A stretch of 64,000 bases of DNA from Escherichia coli (GTDB lineage: Bacteria; Pseudomonadota; Gammaproteobacteria; Enterobacterales; Enterobacteriaceae): the NCBI RefSeq assembly GCF_044324785.1, contig NZ_CP172127.1, one strand, 5' to 3'. Below, piece by piece: positions 34,321-39,124 of the stretch. Numbering within the stretch: the stretch's first letter is position 1; every line of letters starts with the position of its first letter. The notes under the pieces are model-generated. The model had not been told where the DNA came from and made no database searches. It was given only the letters and a program-made list of their open reading frames with translations. Made by a program: the position numbers and the translations under genes.

Positions 34321-35505
34321 TTAACTTTCCCGGCTGGAGAGTGAATCAATGTAATCAGCGTACCATTGCATCATTTCACGGCGGCCATCGAGATACAGGG
34401 CATGATTATAGGTACCCCTGATGGAATTTTTATCCACATGAGCTAACTGCATTTCAATCCAGGCAGAATTAAAGCCCTGTTCGTGCAGAATGGTACTCAT
34501 GGTGTGACGAAAACCATGACCGGTTGCCCTGCCATCGTAACCGATACGTTTGAGCACCATATTGATGCTGGCTTCGCTCATTGGCTTGTTGATATCACAA
34601 CGTCCCGGAAAAACCAGCCGGTATTGCCCGGAGAAAGTTTTGAGCTGCAGCAGAATGTCAGTGGCCTGTCGTGACAGTGGTACGACATGTTTACGTCGCA
34701 TTTTCATGCGGCTTTCAGGGATTGTCCACAGTGCATTATCAAAATCAATTTCTGACCATTCAGCGGACCGTAGCTCAATGGTTCTGAGACCTGTCAGAAG
34801 CAGCAGATTTGTCGCCATGCGGGTAACAGGACTGCCATGATACTCAGCGAGCTTCCGGAGAAAAACAGGGAGCTCATCTGCTCTCAGGTGGGGGAAATGT
34901 GCAGCTTTTGGCGCCGCCAGCGTACTGGTCAGTTCAGATGCCGGATTGACAGTGGCTCGTCCGGTGGCGATGGCATAACGAAAAATCTGATTACAGTATT
35001 GACGCACCTTACGAAGTTTTTCCAGCGAGCCACGTTTTTCTATGCGGCGCAGAATTTCCAGCATTTCCAGCGGGAGGATATCCGTAACGCTTCGTTTGCC
35101 CAGATACGGGAAAATATCTTTATCCAGCGCTTCCAGTACGCTTCTGGCGTAACTTTCAGACCATGACAAAGATTTATGCTGGTGCCATTCCGTAGCGAGG
35201 GCATGGAACGTATTGGTGGCAGAGATTTTCTGAGTGAGTTTTTCCTTTCGCTTCTTTTCGCCCGGGTCACCACCTTCGGAGATGATTTTTCGGGCATCGT
35301 CGCGTTTGATTCTGGCCTCAGCAAGGGAGACGTCGGGATAGACGCCGAGGGCCAGTTTTTTCTCTTTTCCTGCTATCCGGTATTTAAGCCGCCAGTAGCG
35401 GGCACCCGTGGTTTTTACCAGCAGATATAAACCACGTTCGTCAGAGAGTTTATAGTCTTTTTCTTTAGGTCTGGCTGTTTCGACCTGTCTGGCTGTAAGT
35501 GCCAT
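34321..35505 (-). CDS. int: P4-type tyrosine integrase
   Basis: About 394 aa from MALTARQVETARPKEKDYKLSDERGLYLLVK (P4-int N-terminus); C-terminal catalytic region with GHGFRHT and Tyr; next to the tRNA-Phe 3' fragment. Confidence 0.9.
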   Translation of the reverse strand: MALTARQVETARPKEKDYKLSDERGLYLLVKTTGARYWRLKYRIAGKEKKLALGVYPDVSLAEARIKRDDARKIISEGGDPGEKKRKEKLTQKISATNTFHALATEWHQHKSLSWSESYARSVLEALDKDIFPYLGKRSVTDILPLEMLEILRRIEKRGSLEKLRKVRQYCNQIFRYAIATGRATVNPASELTSTLAAPKAAHFPHLRADELPVFLRKLAEYHGSPVTRMATNLLLLTGLRTIELRSAEWSEIDFDNALWTIPESRMKMRRKHVVPLSRQATDILLQLKTFSGQYRLVFPGRCDINKPMSEASINMVLKRIGYDGRATGHGFRHTMSTILHEQGFNSAWIEMQLAHVDKNSIRGTYNHALYLDGRREMMQWYADYIDSLSSRES

Positions 35506-35680
35506 ATGGGGGCTCCTGAAACTGACTGAACACAATGAGCCCCCACCGGGGCCCCCAATGAACGCTTGATTGAGAGAGAGTTCAGTAGAGTCTGGTGGAG
35601 TTCAGAATGTTCAGATTGCTTGTAACGATGTGATTATACTTGAGTTTCGTGGAGTTCGGGAGATGAATCTGGAAGTGAAA

Positions 35681-35730
35681 GTGGTGCCCGGACTCGGAAT
35701 CGAACCAAGGACACGGGGATTTTCAATCCC
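35681..35730 (-). other. Partial tRNA-Phe gene, 3' 50 nt only (displaced attachment-site copy)
   Basis: Minus-strand sequence equals the 3' 50 nt of E. coli tRNA-Phe (as I recall it) including anticodon loop and CCA; identity stops where the 5' half should be. Confidence 0.8.
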
Positions 35731-35782
35731 CGTGCCATAATTGGCTGTGTCAGTTGGTTACACACCATTGAGGTGTGTACTA

Positions 35783-36661
35783 ATGAAAATACTGCCCGTT
35801 GTCTCCACAAAAGGTGGCGAAGGTAAATCAACACAATCCGCAAACCTGGCTGGTTTTCTCGCCGATGCAGGTATCCGTACCCTGCTGATTGACGGAGATC
35901 ATGCTCAGCCCACGGCAAGCAACATCTTTCCGCTGACATATGAAGCGTCAGCCGGTCTTTTTGAGTTGCTGATGCGCACGGCTGACCTCAGTCATCCCGA
36001 TAACATCATTTCCCGCACGGCTATCGACGGACTCGATCTGATAGTCTCCAATGACCCTCATGAGCAGTTAAAAACTGCGATGCTTCACGCCCCGGATGGT
36101 CGTCTGCGCCTCCGGAATGTCCTGCAGCATCCGCTTTTTCTGAACAACTACGATGTCATTGTAGTTGATTCTCAGGGAGCACGTTCTGTCATGCTCGAAA
36201 TGATTATGCTGTCGGCCACTGATTCGGTTGTCGGGATGGTCAATCCGGTACTCCCTGATGTGCGCGAGTTTATTCGGGGCACTGTCAATGTTATGGAGAA
36301 CCTGCTGCCTTACCGGGAGCTGGGGATACCCCTGCCGAAAGTACGCACGCTGGTTAACTGCATGGATTATACGGCACTGGCCAGGAAGACGCTGGATGAG
36401 CTGGCCGGAATTATTCAGACCGGTCGTTACAGCAGACAGTTACCTGAAGGTGCGGTTTCCCTTCTTTCCACACAGATTTACGACCTGAATATTTACAAGC
36501 AGGGGCATGCGGCTGGTCAACCCGTACATCGTCTCGAAAAAGAATCCACACGTCGCAGTGATTCCGCGCTTGTCACGATGCACAGCCTGGCCTGTGAACT
36601 CTTTCCTGAGTGGAAACAGGCGTTTGACGGGCTGCTGGCGAACGGGGGAATACGTCAGTGA
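35783..36661 (+). CDS. parA: ParA/Soj-family partition ATPase
   Basis: MKILPVVSTKGGEGKSTQSANLA deviant Walker A; first gene inside the ICE boundary. Confidence 0.9.
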   Translation: MKILPVVSTKGGEGKSTQSANLAGFLADAGIRTLLIDGDHAQPTASNIFPLTYEASAGLFELLMRTADLSHPDNIISRTAIDGLDLIVSNDPHEQLKTAMLHAPDGRLRLRNVLQHPLFLNNYDVIVVDSQGARSVMLEMIMLSATDSVVGMVNPVLPDVREFIRGTVNVMENLLPYRELGIPLPKVRTLVNCMDYTALARKTLDELAGIIQTGRYSRQLPEGAVSLLSTQIYDLNIYKQGHAAGQPVHRLEKESTRRSDSALVTMHSLACELFPEWKQAFDGLLANGGIRQ

Positions 36662-36749
36662 TTCAGGTTAAGCGAGAACCATGCAGCTCCGTTACCCTGG
36701 CTTATGGACGTTATCAATACCGGACAATATGACGAGAAGGATTAACCCT

Positions 36750-37244
36750 ATGAATAACAGCAGCAATACCACAACCCGTAATACGCTTTCACCCGTTGAG
36801 TCAGCCTGTCATGCCTTACTGGATTTTATTGCCCGGGAAGTTTTTGAGAATAAAGCACCGGAAGAGGACGTCAGGGAACGTTGCAAAGTATTTACAGCGC
36901 TGCTTAACGAAGGATTTAAAGCCCTGCTTGATGAGGCAGGGCTGAATCTGTCAAACCTTCGTAAACAGTGTGAGGAACTGGAATCTCAGATAACCAGACT
37001 TGATTCTCAGTCCGATGCTATTTGTCGCAGAGGTGCTCAAATTGAACGCTTCATTGGTCACCATTTACCTTTTTTCGATTTGAACAAAGTTTTTGATACT
37101 GCCAGTCAGTCATGTGAACCAGCGCCTTCTCCGGCTCAGTCGGCTGTGTCCAGTAGTCAGCCCAGTAATCTGTCAGAGCAAGGGACATCTCAGCGGGTGT
37201 CATCTGTTCAACCGTTGCAGGGAGCCAGTGATGTTGATGAATAA
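36750..37244 (+). CDS. Hypothetical ICE protein (coiled-coil)
   Basis: ORF with RBS GAAGGA before ATG 36750; 3' third overlaps a convergent ORF and may be over-extended. Confidence 0.45.
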   Translation: MNNSSNTTTRNTLSPVESACHALLDFIAREVFENKAPEEDVRERCKVFTALLNEGFKALLDEAGLNLSNLRKQCEELESQITRLDSQSDAICRRGAQIERFIGHHLPFFDLNKVFDTASQSCEPAPSPAQSAVSSSQPSNLSEQGTSQRVSSVQPLQGASDVDE

Positions 37245-37527
37245 GAGCAAACTTAACGGCTTGTTGAACGCTGATACTGTTATCGTCCAGAAAAAACCAG
37301 CGGCGGCTGTTAATCAGCCAGTGTCCGAGCCAGCAAAGTCGGTAAGCGAGCTTCCGGTCAGCTCCGGGAAAGATTTCTGTTCCCTGGTCAAAGAAGGTTT
37401 TGCACCGTTCCACATCGTCGGTGCTCATACCTCCGACTTTCCAGTTTTCATAATATTTTGCCATGTTGCCATCCTCATCATGGTTGTTATCAATGCCGGA
37501 CGGCAGTTGCTGATGATTTGTGTTCAT
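37051..37527 (-). CDS. Hypothetical protein (Trp-rich), antisense to the ICE operon direction
   Basis: About 158-aa ORF with protein-like composition (YWADYW, HQHHW); overlaps the 3' end of 36750-37244. Confidence 0.4.
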   Translation of the reverse strand: MNTNHQQLPSGIDNNHDEDGNMAKYYENWKVGGMSTDDVERCKTFFDQGTEIFPGADRKLAYRLCWLGHWLINSRRWFFLDDNSISVQQAVKFALIHQHHWLPATVEQMTPAEMSLALTDYWADYWTQPTEPEKALVHMTDWQYQKLCSNRKKVNGDQ

Positions 37528-37735
37528 AAGGTATTTCTCTTCGTAAACATGTTGATTATGAGCGCAAATATGCTGTACGTACCTTCTGACCGGGGTCGGC
37601 AAACTTACCGGTCGGAAAATGTACAGACAGTTATGGGCCTTTTATGCCCTGCAACTGTTCGTCCGGCACCCGTTTTCGTTTTTTTGCATGGTGGGTTTGC
37701 TGTGAAACAGGCTCCGTTTGCCCGGGAGGTGGCGT

Positions 37736-39124
37736 ATGTCTGAACGCTATATTCCACGCTCCGTTGATGCAGAGCAGGCCGTGCTGGGCGGCCTGATGCT
37801 CGATAATGAACGCTGGGATGAGGTGGTACTGATGCTCCGGGGGGAGGATTTTTCTCTGGCCGCACACCGGGTGATATTCCGCACCATGTCAGAGCTGGCA
37901 ACCAGCGGTCAGCCGTTCGACCTCATCACGCTGAGTGAGCATATTGAGAAAACAAACAATATTGAGGCACTGGGTGGTTTCGCTTATCTGGCTGAACTCA
38001 GCAAAAATACGCCTTCTGCAGCCAATATTATCGCTTATGCCCGTATTGTTGCTGAAAAGAGCATGCTGCGTCAGTTGCAGGAGACGGGGAATGCGCTGAT
38101 TACGGATGTGGCCGCACCGGATGCGACACCACGCACTGTTCTTGAATCCGCTGAACGTCGGCTCTTTTCACTTTCACAGACTGGCATGTTGCATGAGCGA
38201 TGTGAAGTCAGTCTCACCTCGGCTATGGAGCTGGCGCTGCGTCAACTGGAAGAGGGACTGAACGCCGGCGGGATGACGGGCACGCCCACGGGATTTGATG
38301 AACTGGATAAGATGACCTGTGGTCTGCAGCCCGGCGACCTCATTCTTCTGGCTGCACGCCCGTCTATGGGGAAAACAGCGCTGGGCCTTACCTTCTGTCT
38401 TAATGCCCTGTGTAACCGGACCGATGAAACGGTATTTCTTTTCAGTATCGAAATGTCCCGGGAGCAGCTGATTCTGCGTGTCCTGTCAATGCTCTCCAGG
38501 GTGGAGCTGACACGTCTTCGCAGCAGCATGATGAATGATGAAGAGTGGGCGAGAGTCACGGCAACCATGGGACGCTTCATGAATGAAGCGTCATTCATCG
38601 GAGATGGAAACCGCCTGATAATTGATGACACCTCCTTCCAGACGCCGTCATCGCTGCGTGCCAGCGCCCGTCGTTATGTCCGTCTGTATGGCAGACCTTC
38701 CCTGATAATGGTTGATTACCTCCAGCTGATTCGTTCTCCGGACCAGGAGAACCGAACGCAGGAAATTGCGGAAATATCCCGCGCCCTTAAGGCGTTAGGT
38801 AAAGAGCTGGGATGCCCGGTACTGGCACTGTCTCAGCTTAACCGTCAGGTGGAGCAGCGGGCGGATAAGCGCCCCAATAACGGTGACCTGCGTGATTCCG
38901 GGGCGCTGGAGCAGGATGCTGACCTCATTATGTTTATTTACCGTGATGAGGTTTATAACTCTGGCACGCTGGATAAGGGCGTTGCTGAAATCATTGTGAG
39001 CAAACAGCGGCAGGGGCCAACCGGAACGATACGGGTGAACTTCGACGGCCGCTACACCCTGTTTTCACCGTTTGAACGTGGATGGAATTTTGACCGTGCC
39101 GGAGGAAATGCGTATGTCAATTAA
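37736..39124 (+). CDS. DnaB-like replicative helicase (ICE-encoded)
   Basis: N-terminal DnaB domain (EQAVLGGLMLDNERWDEV), Walker A ARPSMGKTALGL, C-terminal RecA-like motifs; RBS GGAGG. Confidence 0.9.
   Translation: MSERYIPRSVDAEQAVLGGLMLDNERWDEVVLMLRGEDFSLAAHRVIFRTMSELATSGQPFDLITLSEHIEKTNNIEALGGFAYLAELSKNTPSAANIIAYARIVAEKSMLRQLQETGNALITDVAAPDATPRTVLESAERRLFSLSQTGMLHERCEVSLTSAMELALRQLEEGLNAGGMTGTPTGFDELDKMTCGLQPGDLILLAARPSMGKTALGLTFCLNALCNRTDETVFLFSIEMSREQLILRVLSMLSRVELTRLRSSMMNDEEWARVTATMGRFMNEASFIGDGNRLIIDDTSFQTPSSLRASARRYVRLYGRPSLIMVDYLQLIRSPDQENRTQEIAEISRALKALGKELGCPVLALSQLNRQVEQRADKRPNNGDLRDSGALEQDADLIMFIYRDEVYNSGTLDKGVAEIIVSKQRQGPTGTIRVNFDGRYTLFSPFERGWNFDRAGGNAYVN

Follow-up and report, generated by a model that had tools for sequence, protein, structure and literature searches.

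Can two genes run into each other tail to tail and share close to 200 nt of DNA, and if both are genes, which of them decides how the shared stretch evolves? The question is posed by two convergent open reading frames (ORFs) at the start of an ICE (integrative and conjugative element) of Escherichia coli, contained in a 64,000-nt stretch of contig NZ_CP172127.1 (assembly GCF_044324785.1) that we refer to as the window. ORF A lies on the plus strand and ORF B on the minus strand, with their ATG start codons at 36750 and 37527; these are exactly the limits given by the original prediction, as both the ORF list and the sequence confirm. That prediction described an overlap of about 190 bp at the 3' ends, which measures 194 nt once both stop codons are counted, and left the choice between a mis-called frame and a real antisense organisation. 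Our comparison of related loci, cited below by their numbers (L003 and so on), indicates that A and B are probably both genuine genes in a real tail-to-tail arrangement, in which the reading frame of B governs the overlap and the tail of A is a passenger.

Homologues of A are confined to three enterobacterial clades: the window type, the type represented by L003, L007, L008 and L009, whose proteins are 53-58% identical to A, and a Salmonella/E. coli type (L004, L005, L018, L020 and P0034-P0039), in which identity falls to 29-33% with the ORF still intact. The same junction is found in all clades bearing A, and A stops at the same place, directly after the motif GASDxxE. The overlap spans 194 nt in the window, 170 nt in L003, 179 nt in L004 and 194 nt in L020; since A measures 164-176 aa and B 150-163 aa across the three clades, these are orthologues of similar length that have kept the overlap. 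All insertions and deletions within it are multiples of 3. The two frames are phased such that first codon positions face each other (A1 and B1), A2 faces B3 and A3 faces B2. As far as these genomes tell, the overlap exists physically and goes back to the ancestor of all A genes.

Inside the overlap, substitutions follow the frame of B. Differences between the window and L003 number 9 at the A1/B1 sites, 21 at A2/B3 and 5 at A3/B2. Nei-Gojobori estimates (NG86), used for all ratios of non-synonymous to synonymous rates (dN/dS, or omega) given here, yield for the window against the L003 clade an omega of 0.08 in the B frame and of 5-11 in the A frame, where 1-2 synonymous changes stand against 30 non-synonymous ones. 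Opposite B's most conserved motif, 12-14 of 33 B3 sites have changed, compared with 1-2 of 33 at each of B1 and B2. The background synonymous rate was taken from the neighboring dnaB gene and from the zone that A alone occupies: between the window and the L003 clade, B has a synonymous rate (dS) of 1.0-1.2 in the overlap, as against 1.09 for dnaB and 1.2-1.3 for the A-only zone. As the rate in the overlap equals the background, the tail of A imposes no visible extra constraint. Dual coding should leave either constraint on both frames or a lower synonymous rate within the overlap, and neither was found, with a weak contrary hint in the comparison of the window with L020. Outside the overlap, each gene is under purifying selection. 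Conservation of each frame in relatives had been proposed as a check in the original prediction, and its outcome does not single out one frame: both are open, and both are conserved outside the overlap, with the qualification that within the 194 nt the signature of selection is B's only. Our reading is that the overlap evolves under the coding constraint of B, and that A residues 101-164 form a largely disordered, overprinted passenger tail.

An A frame that is free of stops and ends at the same codon in three clades invites a different reading, that of true dual coding, in which the last 64 residues of A would be functional and selected alongside the C-terminus of B; we consider this unlikely. 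When the B protein was recoded with synonymous codons and the stop-free A frames were counted, the A frame stayed open with a chance of 0.16 (window), 0.32 (L003 clade) and 0.47 (L004 clade), values that are not remarkable for a single lineage. That A and B exist as genes, in contrast, goes far beyond chance, given their homologues and the selection tests. The A motifs DIASxSC and GASDxxE are conserved, yet they lie exactly opposite the conserved B motifs HHWLP and MTDWQYQ and so come for free. Within the second clade, divergence is lower in the overlap than in the A-only zone, and in the deepest comparison, that of the window with L020, the proportion of synonymous differences (pS) of B is 0.50 in the overlap as against 0.81 in its core and 0.72 in dnaB; against the L003 clade, however, the synonymous rate of B is not suppressed. 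The order of variability in A, with the third position least and the second most variable, is the reverse of a coding signature; the excess of non-synonymous changes given above also speaks against dual coding, and residues 128-159 are predicted to be disordered, with a predicted local distance difference test (pLDDT) score below 50 in the AlphaFold2 (AF2) model. The phase of the frames also bears on this reading, as it renders almost all B-synonymous changes non-synonymous in A, so that a weak constraint on A can be feigned by the codon bias of B; because nearly every such change alters A, a clean test needs many more lineages.

Whether A is a gene at all can be judged from the part that it does not share with B. 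It runs from the ATG at 36750 to a TAA at 37242-37244 (187 aa if translation began at the upstream ATG, 36681), and its Shine-Dalgarno motif, AAGGA, 8 nt ahead of the ATG, is conserved, as is the start itself. In the A-only zone (residues 1-100) the A frame has an omega of 0.23 at a dS of 1.2, the lowest of the six frames, and substitutions are most frequent at codon position 3, followed by 1 and then 2, in both independent clade comparisons. In the AF2 model, residues 15-33 and 38-105 are helical and pLDDT exceeds 90 over about residues 20-100; the second of these helices, predicted as one long helix at pLDDT above 90, agrees with the coiled coil that had been proposed for the plus-strand ORF. 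The idea that A has non-overlapping homologues was dropped, as a 178-aa protein in the same slot of L014 and other neighboring small ORFs proved not to be homologous to A. That only B is a gene, and A a spurious ORF extended through non-coding DNA between parA and B, might be argued from the omission of A by RefSeq in some genomes, from its deletion in strain G8, and from its few homologues and lack of a family match (nothing above threshold in Pfam, NCBIfam, PHROGs or PADLOC, and no structural relative). Against this stand the omega and codon-position pattern in two clade comparisons, the conserved ribosome-binding site (RBS) and start, the maintenance of the ORF at 29-33% identity, the confident helical model and the fact that A is intact in lineages where B is broken; we regard this alternative as very improbable. 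On the comparative evidence, A is a genuine, selected and foldable protein-coding gene.

B begins at the ATG at 37527, preceded by a Shine-Dalgarno motif, and ends with the stop codon at 37053-37051; with the upstream TTG at 37602 as start, it would measure 183 aa. With 8 Trp among 158 residues (5.1%) the protein is indeed Trp-rich, as had been predicted, and its AF2 model is all-helical (mean pLDDT 74, about 90 in the core). Where B does not overlap A, its core has an omega of about 0.25; of the six frames that of B has the lowest omega, and across clades 40 differences fall on B3 compared with 22 on B1 and 21 on B2 (72 codons). A word-based search returned homologues at 74% and 52-54% identity, and a profile search against 1.8 billion cluster representatives extended the family to 20 representatives, 10 of them at E <= 1e-10. 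The remote homologues are 131-149 aa long and merely 26-39% identical to B, and share with it the motifs YRLxWLGxWL, ALxFALIxxHxWxP and LTPxEMSLALTDYW. A scan of representative genomes with peptide patterns of B, which were too specific, returned one degenerate fragment, in Citrobacter braakii. In all readable contexts (L011, L012, L014, L015, L017 and L020), B adjoins parA, dnaB or parB of SPI-7-type elements on the opposite strand; most of these loci are without an A homologue, and B there converges on parA or another gene across a gap of 67-297 nt. E24377A and RM11911 carry an additional, 142-aa minus-strand paralogue of B. B is, judging from these comparisons, a genuine conserved protein-coding gene, and it is the older partner of the pair.

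The real antisense organisation that had been considered at the outset is thus borne out by a B family that is always antisense to parA/dnaB, by a selected and foldable A, and by an overlap found in three diverged clades. Within the window, B likewise runs opposite to the long ORFs further into the ICE, almost all of which are on the plus strand, as had been noted. The suspicion that A or B was mis-called did not hold up; the actual mis-call is a third frame, ORF C, which the original prediction had not flagged. RefSeq never annotates A and B together, the pattern being A with C (CM2, E19035, SF-088) or B alone (APEC 102026, GF4), even on identical sequence. C overlaps the start of dnaB by 8 nt and is open over 170 codons. 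It lies antisense to B in codon alignment (C3 faces B1, C2 faces B2), and its omega is 0.96-1.15, with no third-position excess at C3; its C-terminal half is the translation of a non-coding structured module upstream of B. No gene is called antisense to B at the distant loci. Shadow ORFs are open frames in codon-aligned antisense, a description that C matches exactly, whereas the tail of A stands in a different phase (1-1, 2-3, 3-2) and is joined to a genuine gene.

That the majority call of RefSeq is right, with A and C as genes and B as the shadow, is hardly credible: the Prokaryotic Genome Annotation Pipeline (PGAP) does give A and C in most near-identical genomes, and C with its 8-nt overlap would suit a co-directional operon with dnaB, but an omega of about 1 contrasts with 0.25-0.45 for B, the third-position excess falls on B3 and not on C3, B has distant homologues in conserved synteny opposite which no gene is called, and the module that supplies half of C is found also where there is no C-like ORF and with some indels that are not multiples of 3. 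C is, on these grounds, a shadow ORF and an over-annotation, not a gene. The habit of automatic annotation of allowing no long overlaps forces a wrong choice at this locus, with B swapped for C in many complete E. coli genomes, and leaves the B family invisible to readers of records that list A and C.

Several findings nevertheless weigh against the reading of A and B as two genes with a passenger tail. The A frame is open in all clades, for which the joint chance is about 0.02 if the lineages are independent, as they only partly are; and the low pS of B in the overlap against L020 could mean some constraint from the tail of A. B is without a match above threshold in Pfam, NCBIfam, PHROG or PADLOC and without a structural relative, and a simple consensus scan found no sigma-70 promoter for it. 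B is also damaged in part of its range: nonsense codons interrupt it in L018/L019 and in L005, L004 has an in-frame deletion, and the L006 copy (Citrobacter braakii) is truncated; L018 and L019 are two independent assemblies of Salmonella Muenchen, and both have the premature stop. Its loss in several lineages implies that B is dispensable at least in some, possibly decaying, elements.

The opposite loss is seen in E. coli G8 (L010, NZ_CP060057, 2488-2928), which lacks the equivalent of window positions 36662-37096, that is, the first 115 codons of A and the last 15 of B, and retains B at 93% identity over residues 1-144. Since G8 retains B after the loss of A, and distant ICEs carry B alone, B does not need A. 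The region is mosaic: in G8 a B of the window type stands between L008-type flanks. When the window is compared with L003, pS is 0.33 in the B core (37245-37458) as against 0.55-0.60 in the overlap, 0.58 in dnaB and 0.62 in A; recombination or mosaicism is the likely cause of this lower divergence, to which extra constraint at the nucleotide level could also contribute.

Conservation at the nucleotide level is seen at the 5' end of B, in the structured module mentioned above. Its core of 102 nt (37570-37671, minus strand) is gap-free in 21 distinct copies from 15 loci and is conserved even where the B proteins are merely 26-35% identical; a covariance model finds it in the window as a single copy, its one match being these positions, at 106.9 bits. 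An Rfam search of 35400-38000 gave no match at E <= 1 besides a partial tRNA. The module consists of two hairpins and a long-range helix reaching into the coding sequence of B, which encloses both hairpins together with the Shine-Dalgarno motif and AUG of B. For the two hairpins, 83% of cells pair, compared with 24-44% when the partners were slid, and 11 pairs have changes on both sides, a score that 0 of 500 shuffles equalled. Over both pair counts made for the module, the values are 83% and 89% of cells paired, compared with 23-44% for slid partners, and 11 and 14 covarying pairs, likewise equalled by 0 of 500 shuffles. The long-range helix has 15 pairs, of which 93% of cells are paired and five are compensatory. 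Two loci, L011 and L017, have the compensating base within the coding sequence of B, where the protein has Asp for Gly and, in L011, also His for Leu, as seen by eye. This helix accounts for the conservation, at the nucleotide level, of the N-terminus MNTNxQLPSGID of B in diverged homologues. The helices of the module are partly mutually exclusive, and pairing amounts to 83.2% of cells on the strand of B versus 78.8% on the plus strand, with similar minimum free energies.

The module also survives in copies from which the remainder of B is missing; these lie upstream of dnaB or of inserted genes, and a locus can have up to three copies. In the cassette reading given below, that the module and the first 12 codons of B outlast deletion of the remainder would suggest a further function of its own at the RNA or DNA level. 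Two kinds of gene were seen beside it. One, of 300 aa, lies between B and dnaB in L003 (1871-2773), L008 (3431-4333), L010 (3156-4058) and L016 (2815-3717), with a 245-aa version in L007 (3773-4510); it is flanked by duplicated modules, which suggests that the module is a hotspot of recombination or insertion. The other encodes 133-189 aa and separates the module from dnaB, whose direction it shares and whose start it overlaps by 8 nt, in L011 (2875-3276), L006 (963-1532) and L018 (3994-4431); the products from L011 and L006 look homologous by eye, and the gene is absent from the window.

Frpo-type promoters in the leading regions of plasmids, which act on single-stranded DNA (ssDNA), consist of an extended hairpin with -35 and -10 hexamers and an UP element in the stem (Samuel et al., 2024, PMC11541004). 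The B module resembles them in being conserved, self-pairing, directly 5' of a small ORF, present in up to three copies per locus and of one orientation. Unlike in Frpo, no -35/-10 hexamers were found in its stems, and its pairing enters the coding region and encloses the RBS and AUG, which looks more like the leader of an mRNA. A role of the module as a Frpo-like ssDNA promoter was considered but is not supported, as a consensus scan found no promoter-like site and inspection of the arms of hairpin hp2 found no convincing -35/-10 hexamers.

It is possible, if doubtful, that SPI-7/pKLC102-type ICEs have in B, together with the covarying leader of about 175 nt, an autonomous antisense cassette with a switch or establishment function. 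The long-range helix would then close over the RBS and AUG in competition with the two hairpins, and gate the translation of B or the fate of its RNA. Together with transcription of B, starting back-to-back with dnaB and running head-on into parA and A, this could serve as a switch for the replication and partition module; alternatively, the cassette might act in establishment, with its expression coming from the incoming single strand.

On the tail-to-tail reading itself, B would be transcribed against the parA-dnaB-parB replication and partition module from the structured leader beside dnaB. The A frame lacks a stop of its own until it has run 194 nt into the antisense strand of B's 3' end. 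RNA polymerase coming from parA and A would have to traverse B in antisense to reach dnaB, and transcripts of B would run on into A and parA. No intrinsic terminator was predicted on either strand between 36500 and 37900. Given convergent transcription with a fully complementary 3' region and no terminator, mutual interference is to be expected, and we infer that such transcriptional or antisense interference between B and the plus-strand module is likely, provided that both A and B are expressed.

The coordinates of the features are collected in the table below. The region has the layout of SPI-7/pKLC102-type elements, with the RefSeq gene order integrase, tRNA, ParA, dnaB-PI, ParB, and the dnaB gene reaches 683.8 bits with NCBIfam NF040583 against a cut-off of 655, which places it with the SPI-7-type helicases. 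The partial tRNA falls under the gathering score of Rfam and covers model positions 9-63; ARAGORN finds no intact tRNA there, and tRNA-Ser or tRNA-OTHER is annotated at this position in related genomes. About 40 complete E. coli genomes, mostly of avian pathogenic strains, carry the region at 99-100% identity, and no copy of the A/B region was found in the plasmid collection.

Table. Positions of the genes, overlap and structural elements around ORFs A and B, in window coordinates.
Feature	Position	Strand	Basis
Tyrosine integrase gene	34321-35535	-	Listed in window feature order
Partial tRNA, likely remnant of the attachment (att) site and ICE boundary	35693-35746	-	Rfam match, 22.6 bits
parA (ParA/Soj-type ATPase), first ICE gene, upstream of A	35783-36661	+	Pfam AAA_31, CbiA, ParA; RefSeq ParA family protein
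ORF A, 164 aa, coiled coil	36750-37244	+	ORF list; RefSeq WP_001066088.1
ORF B, 158 aa, Trp-rich, all-helical	37527-37051	-	ORF list; RefSeq WP_001354423.1 / WP_071889143.1 in some genomes
Tail-to-tail overlap of A and B, 194 nt (A residues 101-164, B residues 95-158)	37051-37244		ORF coordinates
ORF C, shadow ORF	37231-37743	+	RefSeq WP_064733473.1 / WP_000928920.1, hypothetical protein
Structured module (region upstream of B, RBS, AUG, B codons 1-12)	37494-37671	-	
Hairpin hp2	37573-37630	-	
Hairpin hp1	about 37631-37658 in full; counted inner stem 37634-37651	-	
Long-range helix	37652-37668, pairing with 37494-37509 (B codons 6-11)	-	
dnaB-PI, replicative helicase of SPI-7-type islands, divergent from B	37736-39124	+	NCBIfam NF040583; RefSeq

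Overprinting, in which new coding sequence arises de novo in another frame of a gene already present, is known mostly from viruses. The tail of A shares with overprinted sequences its lineage-restricted occurrence, its Ser/Pro/Gln-rich composition, its predicted disorder and its being dictated by an older frame; it differs in that only a C-terminal extension is overprinted, and on the opposite strand. Among prokaryotes, long overlaps (> 60 bp) may be real in the convergent orientation only, with 54 candidates in 338 genomes, beside a class of 3'-end extensions that result from recent frameshifts (Palleja, Harrington and Bork, 2008, PMC2478687). Like those candidates, A and B are convergent, overlap by more than 60 bp and have orthologues of matching length. 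Unlike them, the present overlap could be traced frame by frame over three diverged clades, with A adding a passenger tail only, and in contrast to the recent frameshifts, the extension of A is ancestral to its whole family. The pair is a well-supported, one-sided member of the class of long convergent overlaps.

A further comparison is offered by ICEclc, of the same broad family, whose attL end is described in the available text of Takano et al. (2019, PMC6812849) as parA-shi-parB, with a co-directional shi of 258 bp that shares a few bases with each of parA and parB. A resembles shi, as far as that text describes it, in being a small gene after parA at the end of the element; it differs in its 495 bp, in the lack of detected similarity and in facing an antisense gene, no B-like counterpart of which is described for ICEclc in the same text. 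A as an analogue of Shi was rejected, the likeness being positional only. An 86-aa Cys-rich ORF (CxxC...CxxC) that overlaps the end of parA in L003 (3885-4145), L007 (1779-2039) and L009 (1417-1677), with a 115-aa relative in L015 (4289-4636) and none in the window, is nearer than A in position and size to shi as given there. Literature searches returned nothing pertinent on genes or RNAs in antisense where parA and dnaB adjoin in SPI-7-type ICEs.

Elsewhere in the window, a tandem array at 46012-46832 consists of 22.8 copies, at 91% matches, of the 36-bp unit ATGGTGCCACTGGCACCACGGTACAAAAAATAAGCG. The palindrome GGTGCCAnTGGCACC is present in every unit, and mechanical ORFs cross the array on both strands. 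The ICE may have here an array of iterons or a centromere-like one.

The locus offers a long convergent overlap, resolved frame by frame, that is physically real yet functionally one-sided, and as such helps to calibrate claims of antisense overlap in general. The overlap itself is of modest interest; the part worth experiments is B with its leader. An always-antisense gene with a structured leader is situated where parA and dnaB adjoin in a clinically widespread family of ICEs, which includes SPI-7, pKLC102/PAPI-1 and the relatives of ICEclc, and would be a plausible candidate for a control point in the maintenance or transfer of these elements.

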